Below are positions 39,798 to 51,252 of a DNA stretch of 64,000 bases, in pieces; the stretch's first letter is position 1, and the number at the start of each line of letters is the position of its first letter. Origin of the DNA: Trueperaceae bacterium (GTDB lineage: Bacteria; Deinococcota; Deinococci; Deinococcales; Trueperaceae); contig OZ243913.1 in assembly GCA_965213705.1 (NCBI GenBank), positions 2,112,001 through 2,176,000 on the forward strand, given 5' to 3'. A program made the position numbers and the translations under genes. The notes beneath the pieces are model-generated. The model saw only the letters and a program-made list of their open reading frames with translations. It was not told the origin of the DNA and searched no databases.

Positions 39798-39870
39798 GGG
39801 AGAGGAAGTAGGAAGTAAAGACTTTTGGTTTTACTTTCCACTTTCTACTCGGTACTTTTCACTTCTTTCA
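39788..39870. repeat. Heptamer-periodic hairpin element between convergent genes
   Basis: gagtagg ggagagg aagtagg aagtaaa / actttcc actttct actcggt acttttc. Confidence 0.75.
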
Positions 39871-40216
39871 GCATCCCCTCACGCTTTTCCTCTTCGTAAA
39901 GCCGCTCGCCGACAAACTGTTTGAGGAGCGTCTGGTAGCCGGTGCCCTTCTTAAAGGCCAACGCCTTGAGGCGTTTGATGACGTCTGCCTCGAGCCGAAT
40001 CGAGGTGGTGCTCGAGCGCACCTTTGGGCGAGGCGGGGGCAGGTGGCTCGGCCGTTCGGCAGGGCGCTCGAACGCTGCTGCGTCCAAGTCGTGCTCGTCC
40101 CACCACGCTTGCTCCTCCGCCTCAGTTTCGAAATCGGGTACCTCTTGCAAACTTGCGACGGTGGCGCGTTCGCTCGCGCTCTTCGGGGTTGGTTTTTCCC
40201 TGGTCTTTGTGGTCAC
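39845..40216 (-). CDS. BrnA/CopG-family antitoxin
   Basis: PDFETEAEEQAWWDEHD, TSIRLEADVIKRLKALA..KG.GYQTLLKQFV. Confidence 0.85.
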   Translation of the reverse strand: MTTKTREKPTPKSASERATVASLQEVPDFETEAEEQAWWDEHDLDAAAFERPAERPSHLPPPRPKVRSSTTSIRLEADVIKRLKALAFKKGTGYQTLLKQFVGERLYEEEKREGMLKEVKSTE

Positions 40217-41781: not shown

Positions 41782-42027
41782 CTATTCTGCATAGGTGAGG
41801 TCGTTTTTGACAAAGTTATCTAAAGAATAGTTGGGGTACTCGAGCCCGTGCGAGGTGTACCAGCGGATGGCTTCTTGACGGGCTAAGCCCAAAACGCTCC
41901 CCGCCTTGGCAACTGTCATGCGTTCTTGCCGGACGAGGAGTAGCAGCACACCCTCGAGGATTTCGCGCTGCGGCTCGTTGCCTAAAGCCTCGAGGACTTC
42001 GGTGGGTAGCTCGAGGTGGAGGGTCAT
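41782..42027 (-). CDS. UPF0175-family putative antitoxin (orphan)
   Basis: MTLHLELP...MTVAKAGSVLGLARQE HTH-like; no PIN gene follows. Confidence 0.7.
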   Translation of the reverse strand: MTLHLELPTEVLEALGNEPQREILEGVLLLLVRQERMTVAKAGSVLGLARQEAIRWYTSHGLEYPNYSLDNFVKNDLTYAE

Positions 42028-42156: not shown

Positions 42157-45135
42157 TTACTCAGACTCGTTGAGGCGTTGATAAACCTTTTGTAGCATCC
42201 ACTCCTTCACTGCATCACTAAAGCCTCTGTTGTCCATAATCTTTGCAAAGATGTCCTGGTTCAGTTCCATGCGTTCAATCAACTTAGTCACGAAGGCTTC
42301 GTCGAACCCGTACTTGAAATTGCCAATCGTGTTGGTCTTGGCTTGCTGCGCCAGCACCTCGTCTTGCACAAGCTCTTCTTCGATTTGGTTGAAAAAGAAC
42401 TTGTCCGCGTTGGTAAAGTCTGTGCCGAAGCGGTCATTCAAAATGTCGATAATCTCCGAGAGCTTCGCCTCGAGTTCCTTTTCGGCGCGGTCGCCCGCTT
42501 CCGAAAGCGGGGTTAAGGCCGCGTCTCCACCTTTTTCTAAAACGATGTTGCCTTCGTTTATTTTTTGCAGGCGGTAATACTCGAGCGCAACCTCGTCGTT
42601 GAGTTGAAATCCCTCACCGACTTCACGTTGAGGCAGTTTGCTCCCCAAGAACCGCGCGTAAGCATAAAACTTTTCCAGCTCCACATCCTCGAAAGGTACA
42701 ATCTGTGCCAGAAATGCGTACAACCTTATAAATACCGTCAGTGCATTTTTGAAGTCTTCTTTTTTCTCGGCGGTATCCTGCGCTTTAAACCTGTCCACCG
42801 CCGGGTCGATGTACGCGTTAAGGCGCTGGTGGTCGCGGTAACTTCCCGTTTTGTGCGACCTGAAAAAGACCTGTGCAAACAGTTCGACTTCGTCCTCGTA
42901 AATAACCTGAAAAGCGCCCAGCTCGGTCTTCAGGTCGTAAAGCTTGTTGGGGTCGGTGTGCCCTGAGAGCGTCGTCTTTTCGTAAAACGGTTGAAACGCC
43001 TCCAGTATTTCCTCTTCTTCGTTGACAAAGTCGAGGACGAAGGTGTCTTCTTTACCGGGATAGGTGCGGTTGAGGCGCGAAATGGTTTGCACCGCCCGCA
43101 CGCCCGAGAGCTTTTTATCCACGTACATCGTGTGCAGCAGCGGCTGGTCGAAACCCGTTTGGTACTTGTCTGCGACCAAAAGCAGTTGATACTCCTCCGA
43201 CGCGAACCGCTCCGGCAGCTCCCGTTCGCCAAAACCGTTCAGGTCGAACTCGCTGTACTGAAGGCCCGTTTCCCTATCTGTAAACGCCGTGAACGCAACC
43301 AGCGCCCGAATATCGGTGTACCCTTTCTCTGCCAAGTAGTCGTCGAATGCCTTCTTGTAGCGCACCACATGGGGGCGCGACCGGATGACCACCATCGCTT
43401 TGGCCTTGCCGCCGATTTTGTACATCACGCACTGGCGAAAGTGTTCAATCATCACTTCTGTTTTTTGCGCCAAGTTGTGCGGATGCAGCGACACGAACCG
43501 CGCGATGGCTCGAGCCGCCTTCTTTTTGTTGATTTTGGGGTCGTCTTCGATTTCTTTTGAGAGGCGGTAGTACGTTTTGTAGGTCGTGTAGTTCTGCAAC
43601 ACGTTCATGATGAAACCCTCTTCGATGGCCTGGCGCATCGAGTAAAGGTGGAAAGGCTCGGGCTTGCCTTCGGCGTTGGGCGTGCCGAAAGCTTCCAGCG
43701 TTTTAGGTTTGGGCGTCGCCGTGAACGCGAAAAAGCTCAAGTTTTCTTGCCTACCCCGCGCCTGCATCGCTTTGCGGATGTCGTCCTCGGTATCGTCGGC
43801 ATTATCCTGGCTCGCAGCGTTCTCTAAATCCGTGTCGGACGTGCCCAGCACCTCGTTCAAACTTCTGGACGCCTCACCACCTTGCGAGCTGTGCGCCTCG
43901 TCCACGATGACCGCGTAACGCCGCTCGGTGAGTTCGTCGGCTTTACCCAGCACGAACGGGAACTTTTGCAAGGTTGTAATAATAATCTGCGTTCCCGCCT
44001 CGAGCGCCTCTGCAAGTTGGCCCGCGTCCTTGTCAATCCGTTGCACCACGCCCTGTTTGTGCTCGAACTGATAGATGGTGTCTTGCAACTGCCTGTCCAG
44101 CACCCGCCGGTCGGTAATCACGATGACCGAGTCAAAAACGCGCTCGTCGTCAGCATCGTAGAGCCCTGAGAGTCGGTACGCCAGCCACGCAATCGAATTG
44201 CTCTTGCCACTTCCCGCCGAGTGCTGCACCAAGTAGCTGTGGCCTGCGCCCCGCGCCTTGGCGTCCTCGGAAAGTTTGCGCACCACGTCCAGTTGGTGAT
44301 ACCTCGGAAAAATCAGCGACTCGCGCCGCACGGTGCGACCGTCCACCTTGAGTTCTTTCTTTTCCAAATGCAAAAACTTACCGATAATGTCCAGCCAAGT
44401 GTCTTTTGCCCATACCTCTTCCCACAGATAAGCCGTGCGGTGCTTGTGTTCGTTCGGCGGGTTGCCCGCCCCCTTGTCATGGCCCCGATTAAAGGGCAAG
44501 TAGCGCGTTTGCTCGCCGTCTACACGTGTAGTCATATAGGCTTCGTCGGTGTCTACCGCAAAATGTACCAACGCCCGCTTTTTGAACTGAAACAGCAACT
44601 CGCGCGGGTCGCGGTCTTGGCTGTACTGCCGCTGTGCGTTCGACACGCTTTGCCCCGTAAACTGGTTTTTCAGCTCGACCGTCGCCACGGGCAGCCCGTT
44701 TAAGCTGAGCAGCAAATCTACCGACTTGCGCGACTCCTTAGGGCTGTAGTGAAGCTGCCGCGTTACGGTAAGCACATTCTGGCGATAAAGCGCTATCGTC
44801 TCGGGGTTCAGCCCTGACGACGGCTTGAAATAGGCCAGCTTAAAGCGCACTCCGTAGTCGATAATGCCGTGACGCAGCACGTCCAACATGCCCCGGTTGT
44901 CCAGTTCCTTGAAAAGCCGCTGCGTGAGCTTCGCTTCGGCGCTCTCGCCGTGGATGCCGGAGAGCTTTTCCCACGCCTGCGGCTGCGTCGCTTTCAAAAA
45001 CGCCAGCACCGCCCCTTTGTCAAAAGCAAGCTCTTTGCTGAAGCCGCGCCCGTCTCCCTCGGTATAGCCGCCGTCCATGACCAAGCTGCGGACAATCGCC
45101 GCTTCAAAAGCATTTTCGGTCGTCGCCGTGCTCAT
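42157..45135 (-). CDS. hsdR: Type I restriction enzyme R subunit
   Basis: VDLLLSLNGLPVATVELKN nuclease, HSAGSGKS, IVDEAHSSQ, FTATPK, KYQTGFDQP, QTISRLNR. Confidence 0.97.
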   Translation of the reverse strand: MSTATTENAFEAAIVRSLVMDGGYTEGDGRGFSKELAFDKGAVLAFLKATQPQAWEKLSGIHGESAEAKLTQRLFKELDNRGMLDVLRHGIIDYGVRFKLAYFKPSSGLNPETIALYRQNVLTVTRQLHYSPKESRKSVDLLLSLNGLPVATVELKNQFTGQSVSNAQRQYSQDRDPRELLFQFKKRALVHFAVDTDEAYMTTRVDGEQTRYLPFNRGHDKGAGNPPNEHKHRTAYLWEEVWAKDTWLDIIGKFLHLEKKELKVDGRTVRRESLIFPRYHQLDVVRKLSEDAKARGAGHSYLVQHSAGSGKSNSIAWLAYRLSGLYDADDERVFDSVIVITDRRVLDRQLQDTIYQFEHKQGVVQRIDKDAGQLAEALEAGTQIIITTLQKFPFVLGKADELTERRYAVIVDEAHSSQGGEASRSLNEVLGTSDTDLENAASQDNADDTEDDIRKAMQARGRQENLSFFAFTATPKPKTLEAFGTPNAEGKPEPFHLYSMRQAIEEGFIMNVLQNYTTYKTYYRLSKEIEDDPKINKKKAARAIARFVSLHPHNLAQKTEVMIEHFRQCVMYKIGGKAKAMVVIRSRPHVVRYKKAFDDYLAEKGYTDIRALVAFTAFTDRETGLQYSEFDLNGFGERELPERFASEEYQLLLVADKYQTGFDQPLLHTMYVDKKLSGVRAVQTISRLNRTYPGKEDTFVLDFVNEEEEILEAFQPFYEKTTLSGHTDPNKLYDLKTELGAFQVIYEDEVELFAQVFFRSHKTGSYRDHQRLNAYIDPAVDRFKAQDTAEKKEDFKNALTVFIRLYAFLAQIVPFEDVELEKFYAYARFLGSKLPQREVGEGFQLNDEVALEYYRLQKINEGNIVLEKGGDAALTPLSEAGDRAEKELEAKLSEIIDILNDRFGTDFTNADKFFFNQIEEELVQDEVLAQQAKTNTIGNFKYGFDEAFVTKLIERMELNQDIFAKIMDNRGFSDAVKEWMLQKVYQRLNESE

Positions 45136-46136
45136 GGCTGCTCCTCTTCGACAAACTGCATCGTTTCGACAAAGCGCACGTAGGCAACTTCCCGAAACAC
45201 GCTGATAAGCCGCTCACGCTGGCTCTCGGAGAGTGAACTTTTGAGCTTCATATTGTCATCGTAGCAGGTGCGCAAAAACTCGAAGTCGTCAAGCTCCTCA
45301 AATACTGTCAAATTGGGAATAAAAGAGGGTAAGGTGTCTTCTACAAGTTCCAACGTGTCTGGGTCGAAGTAGCGCACGCCCGGCCTGGCATGTTTCTCAA
45401 ATTCGCGGCCCTGAAAATTCGGCTTGCCGTTCCGTGAAGGCCAGTACACCCCGAAAAACTCCGCCGTGCCCGACTTGTAAACCTTAGCAATCTGCACCGA
45501 GCCGTCCACCTCGCGCTCGCTCTCGTCACGCGCCCTGCTGATGAGAACTTGGAGGGGTTCCATGTCGAGCTTAGCGTCGAACCTGTCGTCATCGAGGAAC
45601 ATCATTTTGAAGTCGTCAGATGCTTTATCAGCCAAATTGTCGGGATTGCCTAGAAACGTGTAGCTCCGCGTCTTGCTGGGGTCATTTGTGTACTCATTGG
45701 GGATAAACCCCTCAGCATCCTTGGAGTAGTAAAGCTGCCAAATCCGAAATCGGTTCTCAGACCAGCTCCAGCCACCGAACAAAAACCTCGCCTCTGCCCG
45801 CAGTTCGTGAATGTCTCTGCCCGCCGCGCCCGAGTCGTCGATGATGTTAGTCACCAAAGACGTAAACAAAGTGGCGAGGTAGTCAAGCACTTCGCTGATG
45901 TCGGTGCGGCTGCTCTGCAAACGCCGGTTGAGATTAATGGAGGAGATAAGGTTCAGGATGAGCGGGTACGCCCGCGCCGTGTTTCCCGCGAAGCAGATAA
46001 GGCAGTCGGAGCGCGGCAGTTCAAACAGCTTGATGCCCTGGTTCCACTTTTCGCCACCCGTAAGAGAACTGTCCGTCGCAAAGACCAGCTCCTCGGCGTC
46101 ATTCGCCTGCCGAATCCAGGCCGCGCAGAGCGTCAC
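45132..46136 (-). CDS. Uncharacterised proteasome-beta/Ntn-hydrolase-like protein inside the type I RM operon
   Basis: (M)TLCAAW...LVFATDSSLT...IKLF...ICFAG...FLFGGW...YTFLGN...VDGSVQI; GTGA overlap with hsdS and ATGA overlap with hsdR. Confidence 0.8.
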   Translation of the reverse strand: MTLCAAWIRQANDAEELVFATDSSLTGGEKWNQGIKLFELPRSDCLICFAGNTARAYPLILNLISSINLNRRLQSSRTDISEVLDYLATLFTSLVTNIIDDSGAAGRDIHELRAEARFLFGGWSWSENRFRIWQLYYSKDAEGFIPNEYTNDPSKTRSYTFLGNPDNLADKASDDFKMMFLDDDRFDAKLDMEPLQVLISRARDESEREVDGSVQIAKVYKSGTAEFFGVYWPSRNGKPNFQGREFEKHARPGVRYFDPDTLELVEDTLPSFIPNLTVFEELDDFEFLRTCYDDNMKLKSSLSESQRERLISVFREVAYVRFVETMQFVEEEQP

Positions 46137-47464
46137 CCCGTCTCCCCCTCACCCCGCACGTCCACTTTCCCCGTTACCACCTCAGAAACAAGAGCCGTGC
46201 GGTATTCATGCAAAAGCTCAATTTGCTTTTCAGCTTGGCTGATGGTGGTGTCGATTTGGGAGGTTTTCTCGTCAAGATAAAAGATAATAGCTTCTTGTTC
46301 ATTGACTGGTGGACAGAGAATTTCAAAATCCTTGGTTTGAGACTGGTTAAGAATTGGAAGTGTTGCAGAATTAGCTGAGCTAACAACTTTTTCTTTGAAG
46401 GAGTATAAAAAATAAGTTCCAAAGTAAGGATTCATCTTTCCACCATCAAAATGAATAGCATTTATCTGTTGATTAGAAAAAGCAGAACCAGCGGTAATGC
46501 CTACTTTACCAAGTGTTGCTCCAATGCCTACCAATAATGTTGTTTCAGCGGGATAAGTCTTTAGATTTAGTTTGTCGAGTGCATGTCTGCTGATTTTCCT
46601 CTTCGAATTTTGGATGATTAGTTTGTCTTCAAAGTCAGATGGTGTGAACCAGTCAACGTCACCATTGAAGAAGTCGGGCTCATTAGTTGGTGGGGTTTTC
46701 CCAGTTTCTACACGGTGAGCAACACGCCTTATTTTCGTTACTTTCCAATGCTCCGGCACCTCCTCAATCCACTCCACCCCCGAATCTTTCATCTTCACCG
46801 CCGGGTCTAAGCCCTTGGTCACGGCCCGGTTAATCACGGCGGCGCGCTCCTCTTGCAAAAGCGCAATCATGCGCCGTTTTTTGCTTATCAGGTCATCAAT
46901 CTGCGCGGTATGGCGGTCTAGGTAAGCGGTGATGTGCTGTTGTTCCTCGAGGGGTGGTTTTATGGCTGGAAGTGCGTGGACTTTACTAGCATTTAAGTTA
47001 GCCTGAGTGTTGCTGCTTGCCAACTGGATAACGTGGGGTTTGATATGATTTAACCAATGGAATAAATAATCAGAAATTATCTTTGAACTGTTTAATTCAA
47101 TTCCTAAAATCGCTTGGTTGATAGAAGCCTCTGTACCCAACTTGGCAACTTTCCCGAGGCTGGCGTACATCGAATAGATTAACGTTCCCAAAGGCAGCAC
47201 ATCAAGATTTTTTGATTTAAGACCGTCATCCGTAATTCTCTTTTCGGTCTCAGTGACTATAGGTTCGCGCGTCATGTCCGCAATACTTACCCAAGCAACG
47301 CCTTCATCTACTTTGAACGTCCAATAATCAGTATTGTTTGTGTCAGGTGTTCCGCCAGAGTAAAATCTGTTAGTACAATATTTTACCTTCACAATTTCCC
47401 AATGCTCCGGTATTTCCCCAAGCCACTCAACGCCGGAATCTTTGTACCTTTTATACGGCTTCAT
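46133..47464 (-). CDS. hsdS: Type I restriction-modification specificity subunit
   Basis: KDSGVEWLGEIPEHW and its internal repeat KDSGVEWIEEVPEHW, PPLEEQ, two AT-rich TRDs, ALVSEVVTGK. Confidence 0.96.
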   Translation of the reverse strand: MKPYKRYKDSGVEWLGEIPEHWEIVKVKYCTNRFYSGGTPDTNNTDYWTFKVDEGVAWVSIADMTREPIVTETEKRITDDGLKSKNLDVLPLGTLIYSMYASLGKVAKLGTEASINQAILGIELNSSKIISDYLFHWLNHIKPHVIQLASSNTQANLNASKVHALPAIKPPLEEQQHITAYLDRHTAQIDDLISKKRRMIALLQEERAAVINRAVTKGLDPAVKMKDSGVEWIEEVPEHWKVTKIRRVAHRVETGKTPPTNEPDFFNGDVDWFTPSDFEDKLIIQNSKRKISRHALDKLNLKTYPAETTLLVGIGATLGKVGITAGSAFSNQQINAIHFDGGKMNPYFGTYFLYSFKEKVVSSANSATLPILNQSQTKDFEILCPPVNEQEAIIFYLDEKTSQIDTTISQAEKQIELLHEYRTALVSEVVTGKVDVRGEGETG

Positions 47465-47524
47465 TTACGGCGAGATGACCGTCAGCTCGGGAAAGGCCGC
47501 CCGGTACACCTTTTGGTTAAACAT
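47465..47524 (-). pseudogene. 19-aa relic of the vapC 3' end (MFNQKVYRAAFPELTVISP)
   Basis: Matches the VapC C-terminus TFDQKVYRAAFPKLTIISP; TAATG overlap with abrB; its stop abuts the hsdS ATG. Confidence 0.8.
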
Positions 47525-47772
47525 TACCACCCGCGCTGCTTGCCAAGCTCCGCCGTGATGCTTTCCGAGGTTTTGCCGCTGCCGTCGGCCAGTGCCCCGG
47601 CGTAGCGGGCGAACACGCCCTTCTCGCGCACCGGGCGCACGGTCATTTGGCCGTTGTCACCGACCTCGAACGTCAGCACGTCACCCTTGCGCAGTTTCAG
47701 CGCATCGCGCACCTCGGCGGGAATCGTGACTTGACCTTTGCTGGTGACCTTGGCATTTCCTACGACTGCCAC
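47524..47772 (-). CDS. AbrB/MazE/SpoVT-family antitoxin (VapB-like), copy 2
   Basis: KVTSKGQVTIPAEVRDALKLRKGD; identical to 50529-50777 except the last few residues. Confidence 0.9.
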   Translation of the reverse strand: MAVVGNAKVTSKGQVTIPAEVRDALKLRKGDVLTFEVGDNGQMTVRPVREKGVFARYAGALADGSGKTSESITAELGKQRGW

Positions 47773-47788
47773 AAAGACGCACCTCCAA

Positions 47789-47833
47789 GTAAGGCAAGTA
47801 TACGCCTTACGGTAAGGTAGTGGCGCGGCTTAC
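47789..47833 (-). promoter_or_regulatory. Antitoxin promoter/operator: GTAAGGC-N8-GCCTTAC and CCTTAC-N-GTAAGG around a TATACT -10 box
   Basis: Inverted repeats seen directly; duplicated at 50794-50838. Confidence 0.7.
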
Positions 47834-47845
47834 TTTACTGCTTCT

Positions 47846-49927
47846 TCATCCCTGCAAAACCTCTTGCAGCATCCCCTCGGTCTCCTGCTCCAAGCTCATA
47901 ATCTCCGCGCGGATGTCGCTCAGGGGGCGCAGCGGCTTGTACTGGTAAAAGTATTTGGTAAAGGAGATTTCGTAGCCCTTCACGGTTTTGCTTTCGTCTA
48001 TCCAGGCATCCGGCACGTGGGGCAAGACCTCGCGCCCGAAGTAGGCTTGTATGTCGTCTTTCAGCGGGACGTTTTCATAGTCGCGTAGTTGCGTATCCGG
48101 TTCGGGATTGCCTTTGCTGTCGGTGCAAATGTCGGCCAGTTCGTCCCGCTCGCCCAGTGCGTTCATAATGGCTTTTTTCAGGGGTGCGTTCAGTTTCAGC
48201 TCACTTTTCTTGATGGCAGCGTTCAGGTCACGCTCGAAGGCGTCGCGATTTTTGTAAAGTTTCTGGGTGTCCAGGGCTTGCAGCATGGCTTTAACGTCAT
48301 CCTGTAATTGTTTTCCCTCAGCTATCTCCGCTTGAGCCGCAGTGCCTTTTTTGTTGGATTTGGCTAAGTTGGCAAAAGCACTTTCGTCATCCAATCGGTC
48401 TAGGCGTTCTTCGTTCGCCTGGAAGCTCAAACGTAGCGGGCGCTCCACCGTGATGCGCCAGTAGCCGAAATCCTCGTTGTCGAAAATTTTGCTCACGGTC
48501 AGGGTTTCGTCGTCTCCGTTTTTGCCGAAGCTGCGCACCTCGCCGTCTCGGTTATCGCCGTGTATCTCGGTAATGGCGGCGATTTGGTTGGGACTACCCT
48601 CTTCGCCGTCGGCGATTTCGTTGCGCTTGTTACCGAGGCTGCGGCTCATCTTTTGATAGTAGTTCACGGCGTTGATAAGCTGGACCTTGCCCCGGCGCTC
48701 GAGCGCTTTATTGTTGCTCAAAATCCAGATGTAGGTGTAAATACCCGTGTTGTAAAAGAGCTGGTCGGGCAGCGCGATGATGGCTTCTAACCAATCGTTT
48801 TCGATAATCCACTTGCGTATGTCGCTCTCACCGCTGCCCGCGCCGCCGGAGAACAGCGGCGAACCGTTGAAGACGATGCCGACGCGGCTGCCGCCCTCGC
48901 TTTTGGGCTTCATCTTGGAAAGCATGTGCTGCAAGAACAAAAACGAGCCGTCGTTGATTCTCGGCAAGCCAGCGCCGAAGCGACCGGCGAAGCCTTTGTT
49001 TTCATACTCGTCTGTGATGTGCTTTTGCACCTTGCGCCATTCCACGCCGAAGGGCGGGTTGGAAAACATGTAGTCGAAGCGTTCGTCCCGTAGGCCGTCG
49101 CTGGTAAAGGTGTTGCCGAACTTGATGTTCGAGACGTTTTGGCCTTTAATCAGCATGTCGCTCTTGCAAATCGCGTAGCTCTCGGGGTTGATTTCTTGAC
49201 CAAAAACGACGGGTTTGGCGTCTTTATTGAGTTCGCGGATGTAGTCTTCTGCAATCGAGAGCATCCCGCCCGTGCCGCAGGCGGGGTCATAGATGGTTTT
49301 CACAACGCCCTTTTGTTGCAGTAACACCGCGTCGTTGTGAAGCAGCACGTTTACCATCAGCCGAATCACTTCGCGGGGGGTGAAGTGTTCGCCTGCGGTT
49401 TCGTTGGAGAGTTCGGAAAACTTGCGAATGAGTTCTTCGAAGACGTAGCCCATTTCCATGCTGTTGACCGCGTTAGGGTGCAAGTCGGTCTTGGCGAATT
49501 CTTTAAGAACCAGCAGTAGGATGTTGGCATTGTCCAGGCGGTCTATGTGTTCGTTGAAGCGAAAATACTCCATAATCTCGCGTCCGCTGGCTGAAAAGCC
49601 GTTGATGTAGTTTTTGAGGTTGGCGGCTAAGTTGTCGGGGTCTTCTTTGAGTTTTTGAAAGTCATACTTGCTGATGTTGTGAAAAGAGAGACCGGCTTGG
49701 CTGTTTAAGACAGGCTCCAAGTTACTCACGTTCAGCGCTTTGGCCCTGGTTTCGTAAAAGGTTATCACCTTGGCTTTGGTAGGCTCCAACACGCAGTCGA
49801 GACGGCGCAAGACGGTAAAGGGCAAAATCACCTTGCCGTAGTCGGCTTGTTTGTAGTCGCCGCGCAGTAAGTCGGCGACGCCCCAAATAAAACTGGCAAG
49901 TTCTTTCACTTTTGTGCTGCGGGTCAT
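47846..49927 (-). CDS. hsdM: Type I restriction-modification methyltransferase subunit
   Basis: FIWGVADLLRG, GEHFTPREV, YDPACGTGGML, SNPPFG, LPDQLFYNTGI. Confidence 0.97.
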   Translation of the reverse strand: MTRSTKVKELASFIWGVADLLRGDYKQADYGKVILPFTVLRRLDCVLEPTKAKVITFYETRAKALNVSNLEPVLNSQAGLSFHNISKYDFQKLKEDPDNLAANLKNYINGFSASGREIMEYFRFNEHIDRLDNANILLLVLKEFAKTDLHPNAVNSMEMGYVFEELIRKFSELSNETAGEHFTPREVIRLMVNVLLHNDAVLLQQKGVVKTIYDPACGTGGMLSIAEDYIRELNKDAKPVVFGQEINPESYAICKSDMLIKGQNVSNIKFGNTFTSDGLRDERFDYMFSNPPFGVEWRKVQKHITDEYENKGFAGRFGAGLPRINDGSFLFLQHMLSKMKPKSEGGSRVGIVFNGSPLFSGGAGSGESDIRKWIIENDWLEAIIALPDQLFYNTGIYTYIWILSNNKALERRGKVQLINAVNYYQKMSRSLGNKRNEIADGEEGSPNQIAAITEIHGDNRDGEVRSFGKNGDDETLTVSKIFDNEDFGYWRITVERPLRLSFQANEERLDRLDDESAFANLAKSNKKGTAAQAEIAEGKQLQDDVKAMLQALDTQKLYKNRDAFERDLNAAIKKSELKLNAPLKKAIMNALGERDELADICTDSKGNPEPDTQLRDYENVPLKDDIQAYFGREVLPHVPDAWIDESKTVKGYEISFTKYFYQYKPLRPLSDIRAEIMSLEQETEGMLQEVLQG

Positions 49928-50091
49928 TTTGCAATCTTACCAACGTTTGAGGCTCGAGCAGAGCGTGTTAAACTCACGCCCACCATGAAATTCTCAGCCG
50001 CCACCCTCCCCACCGAACACGCCGAGCACGTCACCCGACAGCGCGTCACGGGGGCGGGGCTCGAGTCTTTACACTTTTCATACGCCTTCAT

Positions 50092-50535
50092 TTACGGCGA
50101 GATGATGGTTAGTTTGGGAAAGGCCGCCCGGTACACCTTTTGGTCGAAGGTGAGGAGCCGCGTCTGGTGGTAGCTCGCGTGCGCGCCGATGATGAAGTCC
50201 GCCAGGATGCGCCGGGGACCCTCGTCGTTCGGTTGGCTGTTGCGTTGGCTGCGGCGGCGCTCGATGTAACCCCCGTAGGCGCGGCCCGCCAAGCGCCACA
50301 GGTCGTTCGGCATAGCCCACTCGACCCGGATGCGCGTGTCTTCTAAAAAGGTGGTGACAAAACGTTCGCTGCGCGCGGGCTCGGCGATGAGTTCGCAGTA
50401 GACCGGCGGTGAGATGATGAGTTCGCCGGACTCAGCGGTAGACTCGAGGGCGCGCTCGAGGGCGTCCAAGTCCGCTGCCTTTTCTCCTTGCAGGAGGCTT
50501 AGCAGCACGTTGGTATCGACGGCGGTCGTTACCAC
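50092..50535 (-). CDS. vapC: PIN-domain toxin VapC
   Basis: AVDTNVLL, VYCEL, LADFIIGAHA, LLTFD. Confidence 0.92.
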   Translation of the reverse strand: MVTTAVDTNVLLSLLQGEKAADLDALERALESTAESGELIISPPVYCELIAEPARSERFVTTFLEDTRIRVEWAMPNDLWRLAGRAYGGYIERRRSQRNSQPNDEGPRRILADFIIGAHASYHQTRLLTFDQKVYRAAFPKLTIISP

Positions 50536-50777
50536 CCACGCTCCTTCTTAAGCTCCGCCGTGATGCTTTCCGAAGTTTTGCCGCTGCCGTCGGCCAGTGC
50601 CCCGGCGTAGCGGGCGAACACGCCCTTCTCGCGCACCGGGCGCACGGTCATTTGGCCGTTGTCACCGACCTCGAACGTCAGCACGTCACCCTTGCGCAGT
50701 TTCAGCGCATCGCGCACCTCGGCGGGAATCGTGACTTGACCTTTGCTGGTGACCTTGGCATTTCCTACGACTGCCAC
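50529..50777 (-). CDS. AbrB/MazE/SpoVT-family antitoxin (VapB-like), copy 1
   Basis: SKGQVTIP motif; overlaps the vapC start. Confidence 0.92.
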   Translation of the reverse strand: MAVVGNAKVTSKGQVTIPAEVRDALKLRKGDVLTFEVGDNGQMTVRPVREKGVFARYAGALADGSGKTSESITAELKKERGW

Positions 50778-51252
50778 AAAGACGCACCTCCAAGTAAGGC
50801 AAGTATACGCCTTACCGTAAGGTGGCGGTGCGGCTTACCTAGCGGCTCTACCTCCAGCTTGGGAGCACGTTAACCCCCACCATAAACTTCTCATCCGCCA
50901 CCCTCCCCGCCGAACAAGTCCGCGCACGTCACCCGGCAGCGCGTCACGGAGACGGGGCTCGAGTGCATCTTTTATACCTACCAGCCCGGTGTAACGTTCA
51001 AACGTCACCAGCACGAAGCGGAGCAGACTACAGTTGTACTGAGCGGCGAACTCGTCTTCGCTTTCGACGCTGAGGAGGTGGGTTCGGCGGGGGCGCGGCG
51101 GTGCTGATTCCAAGGGGTAAGCCGCATCGGGCTTACGGGCCGGAGGGCGTGCCGGAGACGCGCACCTACAACGTGTTCAGCCCGGTGCGTAACGAGTTGC
51201 CTCGAGCGGCTACGCGGTAGAATTACCAGTCTCGCGACCCGCACGCCCTGTC

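Follow-up and report, generated by a model that had tools for sequence, protein, structure and literature searches.

A proteasome-beta-like gene embedded in a type I restriction-modification operon and its possible role as a guard effector

What is a gene resembling a proteasome beta subunit doing inside a restriction-modification (RM) operon? The question is raised by a 64,000-nucleotide (nt) stretch of a Trueperaceae bacterium genome (assembly GCA_965213705.1, contig OZ243913.1, positions 2,112,001 to 2,176,000), hereafter the window, in which an open reading frame (ORF) of 334 amino acids (aa), here called X, is flanked by the hsdS and hsdR genes of a type I RM system. The fold predicted for X is that of a proteasome beta subunit, its relatives reside in hsd operons, and a sister family lives apart from them. 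We tentatively read X as a stand-alone defence protease that came to serve one lineage of type I RM systems as its guard effector, and put the probability of this reading at about 40%.

The X gene and its predicted fold

The features on which the argument rests are as follows, in window coordinates.

45132..46136, minus strand: X, proteasome-beta-like Thr1 N-terminal nucleophile (Ntn) hydrolase gene, 334 aa, from ORF, homologue search, model and Foldseek
45348..46136, minus strand: X core, proteasome/Anbu-like, residues 1-263, with T2, D22, K36 and G51 (ORF numbering) and G163-N164
45135..45326, minus strand: predicted helical C-terminal domain of X, residues 271-334, RM-clade-specific, without counterpart in the stand-alone sister family
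42157..45135, minus strand: hsdR, 992 aa, by Pfam and PADLOC
46133..47464, minus strand: hsdS, 443 aa, by Pfam and PADLOC
47846..49927, minus strand: hsdM, 693 aa, DPACGTG and NPPF motifs intact, by Pfam and PADLOC

The coordinates and the tight coupling described in the initial annotation were confirmed: hsdS overlaps the X start by 4 nt (GTGA) and hsdR overlaps the X stop by 4 nt (ATGA). X starts with GTG, with a GGAG motif directly upstream. The ORF is not a chance product, because X has 794 homologues at E ≤ 1e-3, the named ones all called 'hypothetical' or 'uncharacterized'. An artefact or shadow ORF was rejected. The drop in GC content that had been remarked on does exist (X 54.6%, hsdR 54.8% and hsdS 44.1%, genome 60.9%), except that it is modest and operon-wide rather than specific to X.

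On the basis of its modelled structure, X is predicted to be a proteasome-beta-fold threonine hydrolase. The AlphaFold2 model, built from 119 sequences, reached a predicted local distance difference test (pLDDT) score of 84.5 and a predicted template-modelling (pTM) score of 0.80. In a Foldseek search with this model, all 500 counted matches had E ≤ 0.001 (best E 4.4e-9), and those among the matches listed were all proteasome subunits. Realignment of the Foldseek top 1000, which re-ranks only Foldseek's own matches, gave Z 18.1 for the T. acidophilum beta subunit (6bdf) and Z 17.9 for Anbu (5nyw, 204 residues aligned), so the Ntn proteasome-like fold proposed from the letters alone was matched by the very check suggested for it. 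The best alignments to proteasome beta and Anbu span residues 2-263; because they reach residue about 263, what is peculiar to the RM clade amounts to about 60-65 aa (271-332), shorter than the C-terminal extension of about 100 aa first described.

The active site agrees with the fold. Among 66 full aligned loci, D22, K36 and G51 are present in all 66 and T2 in 65, the remaining one having Ser, and a Met-Thr start is common to X relatives (Thr at position 2 in 78 of 81 rows, Ser in 1, 2 incomplete). The Thr1/Asp/Lys/Gly set of the initial annotation is thus conserved in homologues, and its motifs were all found: T-L-C-A-A-W, FATDS (D21 of the mature protein), IKLF (K35), CFAG (G50), FLFGGW, YTFLGN and VDGSVQI. 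The beta sandwich fold and the Thr1/Ser1-Asp17-Lys33-Gly47 pattern by which Fuchs, Alva and Lupas (2021) recognised proteasome-like Ntn proteins (PMC8665760) are accordingly both found in X, the fold in its model. Like Anbu, in which Thr1 is exposed through Met removal (PMC5666114), X has no propeptide. Positions L25, G34, F49, T53, A56 and Y57, assigned by their offset from conserved residues, would make up a hydrophobic S1 pocket. X carries G163-N164 where beta subunits have Gly-Ser, as had been pointed out before, and no conserved Ser follows G163. The Ser129-like site, set by motif and secondary structure, holds D in 41, N in 13, E in 10 and G in 1 of the 66; because it is D/N/E, the proteasome-type Ser/Asp pair is not evident in X. 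Judged by its sequence, catalysis by X may be atypical or activation-dependent.

Sequence searches gave little of this. X matched no family above cut-off in Pfam, PADLOC or NCBIfam, and the same three collections returned only sub-threshold hints for seven to eight distant relatives (best PF00227 at E 0.015, HslV at E 0.063). Neither X nor its alignment drew a meaningful match from a sequence search of the PDB, and X had no match in a phage collection. In the ESM Atlas it fell on unnamed clusters at 0.96 and on one cluster with PF00227 in 14% of members. No alpha subunit, HslU gene or operon of the ATP-grasp/transglutaminase kind was linked to X in the cargo scan; the neighbours of X are hsdS and hsdR. 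X shares the modelled fold, the Thr1-Asp-Lys triad and the oxyanion Gly with Anbu, 20S beta and HslV. It differs from them in its identity (about 13-18%, below Pfam and NCBIfam thresholds), in having no evident conserved Ser129-like residue, in its extra helical tail, in its fixed place in hsd operons, and in the absence beside it of an alpha subunit, of HslU and of Anbu operon genes. X falls below the curated cut-offs and is without the linked operon genes of these families, and the reading of X as an ordinary member of HslV, Anbu or the 20S subunits was rejected. Since neither an alpha subunit nor an unfoldase is linked to it, X probably acts as an ATP-independent enzyme of narrow specificity and not as a degradation barrel.

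Residence in hsd operons and optional carriage

Scanning a single genome for each species gave 114 relatives, and loci were taken from the best 80 of them (41-66% identity). Their records span cyanobacteria, Bacteroidota, desulfobacteria, Acidobacteria, Nitrospirota, gamma- and epsilonproteobacteria, Chloroflexota and others; about ten phyla are represented among the X loci. All 80 lie in an hsd operon, with hsdS upstream in 79, hsdR downstream in 78 and both in 77, and the three loci without both flanks are cut by contig ends. Together with the window, G517 and two viral contigs, this makes 84 of 84 distinct loci in a co-oriented hsd operon (G491 and G909, which duplicate L023 and L057, were left out). 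The gene-neighbourhood survey called for in the initial annotation hence supports the hsd association, and each of the three computational grounds on which that annotation had offered to be overturned, fold, conservation and RM enrichment, came out in its favour. The catalytic motifs of the RM systems themselves look intact. The window carries hsdM, hsdS and hsdR with intact catalytic motifs, as a type I RM system should; all 66 aligned loci keep the nuclease D...ExK, Walker A and DEAH of hsdR, and the Hsd catalytic motifs overall (hsdM, hsdS and hsdR set) are intact in 64-66 of 66. A decoy RM without active HsdR was rejected.

X loci vary in detail. Longer X variants of 367-398 aa occur at L012, L038, L040, L066, L070, L073, L076, L077 and L078, and a conserved 108-114-aa ORF without Pfam match lies directly upstream of X at six Bacteroidota loci (L007, L010, L023, L024, L034 and L065). 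X-bearing operons also hold unrelated cargo, including GmrSD, RhuM, Schlafen, SIR2, PIN, Kiwa and AAA genes.

The association with the RM lineage was traced in an HsdR tree of 121 rows, whose sampling is asymmetric in that X-positive rows were picked by likeness to X. All 68 X-positive rows (67 distinct) fall within one clade of 73 with a support of 0.987, and X was found in none of the 48 rows outside it. The clade has five X-negative members: G524, G507 and G333, with other cargo in the slot, G504, at a contig end, and G149. Because all positives belong to one HsdR clade and negatives occur inside it, X is clade-restricted but optional, and an obligatory subunit of the RM lineage was rejected on account of these X-negative members. 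In genomes sampled at large X is a rare gene. In the window's phylum this HsdR type occurs in 34 of 301 genomes and X in the window's genome only; in Bacteroidota this HsdR occurs in 42 of 301 and X in 3, seed included; in three further samples non-seed genomes with X numbered 0/255, 1/255 and 0/254. The X tree and the HsdR tree share 14 of 45 supported splits and conflict in 23, as against 33 of 44 shared and 3 in conflict for HsdM and HsdR. X is exchanged among operons of its HsdR clade and is not seen to leave the clade. Of the clade-specific HsdR residues, 9 out of 19 fall in 845-976, and these clade-specific residues occur in X-negative clade members too.

Several further elements surround the hsd operon in the window, the first of them cargo outside the conserved unit.

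47524..47772, minus strand: duplicated AbrB/MazE-like antitoxin gene between hsdM and hsdS

This gene belongs to a duplicated cassette (47436-47823 and 50063-50828, minus strand) containing a 300-nt AbrB/MazE-like antitoxin repeat (97%), one copy of which lies upstream of a PIN gene (50092-50535) and the other in the gap from hsdM to hsdS, where of the PIN gene only the 3' end is left. The antitoxin-PIN pair is flanked by direct repeats of about 90 nt (89-91%; 49976-50066 and 50873-50964, 897 nt apart), and a 5' stub of hsdS lies upstream of hsdM via a 100-nt repeat (81%). A CopG/BrnA-type antitoxin and a UPF0175-like small gene are found nearby (39845-40216 and 41782-42027, minus strand).

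The stand-alone sister family and what sets RM-linked X apart

Plasmid and genome searches also yielded sister relatives at 27-35% identity, whose alignment retrieved 717 proteins. Their profile matches HslV (4hnz) at E 0.0019, with D22 falling on D17. Across 91 sister loci the proteins have a median length of 276 aa and all are without the C-terminal tail; hsd genes are nearby at none of these loci (at least 1 kb was present on one side in 70 and on both sides in 42). The 66 RM-clade rows of X group together on a long stem, for which the printed support of 0.49 after rerooting is not reliable. Among seven of the eight sister plasmid records, Gabija adjoins two, Eleos dynamins one and PD-T7-5 one. 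We then considered 198 sister neighbours (217 minus 19 from near-duplicate loci) at a PADLOC cut-off of E ≤ 1e-10. They include long matches to Eleos, Lamassu, SIR2-HerA, Gabija, Hachiman and SIR2-Argonaute, whereas the PADLOC matches of the window control were all generic (ABC, methyltransferase, TatD). After post hoc removal of generic models (mad2/mad3/QatD/ankyrin), 28 of 198 sister neighbours (at 21 of 76 scanned loci) matched PADLOC versus 0 of 47 window control genes. At the level of sequence and context, this is suggestive of a defence role for the sister family.

Two arrangements of sister genes deserve record. An E. coli sister gene (L085:5950-6876), with a PD-T7-5 gene upstream, is split into 208- and 91-aa ORFs, and its DNA recurs at at least 99% identity in 129 of 5426 E. 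coli genomes, where the annotation is hypothetical. In viral contigs L249, L251, L252 and L255 the sister gene repeatedly lies between a 629-aa and a roughly 510-aa ORF, an arrangement for which the representatives scanned gave no PADLOC match.

RM-linked X differs from the sister family in tail, charge and pocket. The tail (271-332) is helical in the model, with C291, Y292, L298 and Y319 conserved. Folded alone from a single sequence it reached pLDDT 64 and had no Foldseek match, which is not proof of a new fold; hhalign found no copy of it among Hsd segments (probability under 2%), and a tail search of the ESM Atlas gave leads only. The net charge per 100 aa is -5.3 for RM-clade X, +1.1 for the sister family and -0.9 to -1.6 for the Hsd proteins. 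For other ORFs it is -0.4, with 8% of 312 at or below -4. The core of X is acidic too, not the tail alone. In the pocket, the sister-invariant R24 has become mostly C/T/S, while R55 and G34 are invariant. Tail distances correlate with those of HsdR and HsdM (rho 0.63 and 0.65; X core 0.47 and 0.42), and the correlation peaks at HsdM 81-160 and HsdR 801-960. A complex prediction for X with HsdM 1-175 and HsdR 745-992 gave no verdict, at a score of 0.00.

Candidate roles of X and their meaning

Our preferred model runs as follows. X would descend from a stand-alone defence protein resembling the sister family. Removal of the start Met would expose its Thr1, in an Anbu-like manner and with no propeptide, and the new helical tail together with the acidic surface would dock X on basic surfaces of HsdM and HsdR, keeping it quiet on the Hsd complex. 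A phage protein directed against restriction, such as an acidic DNA mimic, would displace or free X, which would then cut one or a few specific host proteins via its hydrophobic S1 pocket and so arrest the infected cell. The docking, the trigger and the target are conjectural steps of this model. We regard as doubtful the broader proposal that a proteasome-fold protease was recruited twice, once as a widespread stand-alone antiphage family and once as a fourth type I RM subunit that is tail-docked, mimic-released and host-cutting.

An effector embedded in RM is a known architecture. PrrC is an ABC-ATPase/HEPN protein, and we take prrC to sit between hsdS and hsdR, the review passages saying only 'embedded within' the locus. 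PrrC is activated upon inhibition of EcoprrI, in whose type I RM locus it is embedded (PMC12707154); as with X its gene is an optional accessory of such a locus, whereas PrrC is an anticodon nuclease and X has an unrelated Ntn fold. In Ronin, the effector RonA is tightly hsd-linked and proposed to be caged by HsdMS (10.1101/2023.04.06.535777), the differences being that Ronin has no hsdR and RonA is a 61-aa membrane protein, while the X operon has HsdR with intact motifs. No homology of X to PrrC or RonA appeared in PADLOC, Pfam or NCBIfam, and its predicted fold is Ntn. ClpXP restriction alleviation likewise brings proteolysis to bear on type I RM (PMC12707154), albeit through a housekeeping ATP-dependent protease encoded elsewhere, whereas X is operon-encoded and has no linked ATPase of its own.

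Several observations weigh against the guard model. The raw PADLOC neighbour rate is alike for the sister family (30/198) and the window control (5/47), and the contrast between them appears only after the post hoc filtering. X has no conserved Ser at the presumed Ser129-like site, though the proteasome requires a Ser/Asp pair to complete its catalytic pentad (PMC11947121), and Anbu itself was inactive on standard substrates (PMC5666114). The tail correlation may come from linkage to the hsdR 5' end or from host composition. Among unbiased clade members, the non-seed Bacteroidota, X is present in 2 of 6 (for one of the negatives the contig breaks off), and X is absent from G149, which has the closest related HsdR (81%) but is degraded itself. 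Co-evolution of X with its RM system is loose, because the X tree conflicts with the HsdR tree and the HsdM tree hardly does. Finally, many unrelated cargo genes share operons with X. As an observation on G149 itself (L121:7035-12899), this closest RM relative shows 74-79% DNA identity, with hsdM split, hsdS at half its length and hsdR frameshifted.

Hitchhiking stays a rival because the same operons carry varied defence cargo. X would then protect alone, as the sister family would, and its confinement to the HsdR clade would come only from its having entered the hsdS-hsdR slot once and recombined between related operons since. The optional presence of X in the HsdR clade, the conflict between the two trees, the mixed defence cargo of the slot and its neighbour, and a sister family that lives without hsd all fit. 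Yet X never escaped from hsd in 84 loci with identities down to 41%, in contrast to the sister family with its many unrelated contexts, and the changes in tail, acidity and pocket coincide with the move into hsd. We consider independent cargo unlikely, though better placed than the other alternatives.

Somewhat less likely again is a regulator of restriction, in which X cleaves HsdR or HsdM once unmethylated sites arise in the host and, in place of an alleviation by ClpXP, eases transfer between phyla. ClpXP does degrade HsdR in types IA and IB (PMC12707154), X overlaps tightly with hsdS and hsdR, the system occurs over many phyla, and almost half of the clade-specific HsdR residues cluster in 845-976; these residues are, however, shared by X-negative members, and three of those (G524, G507 and G333) have intact-looking systems without X. 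X shares its active site with the sister family, which is without an hsd neighbour, and no unfoldase is linked to X.

The same hsd context that speaks for a guard would suit a protein that cuts phage inhibitors on the RM complex, restoring restriction so that the cell survives. DNA-mimic inhibitors are acidic. Since X is strongly acidic itself, like DNA mimics, it would bind them poorly, so the clearance of such mimics, part of the removal of phage anti-restriction proteins suggested in the initial annotation, is disfavoured and this role appears improbable. Least probable of all is a non-protease, either an Ntn enzyme working as transpeptidase or amidase (by connectase-like ligation, or on a small amide) or a scaffold whose chemistry is vestigial: X has no evident conserved Ser129-like residue, and connectase, a ligase, warns that likeness to the proteasome need not mean hydrolysis (PMC8665760), but the triad and oxyanion Gly are invariant and the structural neighbours, re-ranked from Foldseek's own matches only, are proteasome beta and Anbu.

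The effector class represented by X is not described in the searchable literature, in agreement with the initial annotation, which knew of no such pairing with RM. We found no paper that describes a proteasome-like gene within RM operons or within defence, subscription texts and preprint supplements lying outside the scope, and the words 'proteasome' and 'Ntn' occur 0 times in 10.1101/2025.01.08.631966, 10.1101/2025.01.08.631726 and PMC13069673. Fuchs, Alva and Lupas (2021) reported 22 new uncharacterised proteasome homologues, such as PMI, WPH and PHD, which like X are proteasome-like proteins of prokaryotes that have diverged but keep the triad intact, and for which they found no informative genomic context (PMC8665760). 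The X family or its sister may be among the 22; their representatives were absent from the few accessions shown per cluster in 10 clusters.

Most prokaryotic proteasome homologues have neither a known function nor an informative context (PMC8665760). The context of the X clade is near-invariant, and therefore a direct test of biological role is possible, with the RM-linked and stand-alone sister clades offering a natural comparison of effector-sensor coupling. A narrow-specificity Ntn enzyme could also become a tool, as connectase did. Under the guard model, protease chemistry would join the back-up layer of RM, where the accessory effectors in the papers cited here are the tRNase PrrC and the membrane protein RonA. 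If the double recruitment is true as well, a prokaryotic proteasome homologue would for the first time have an immune role.

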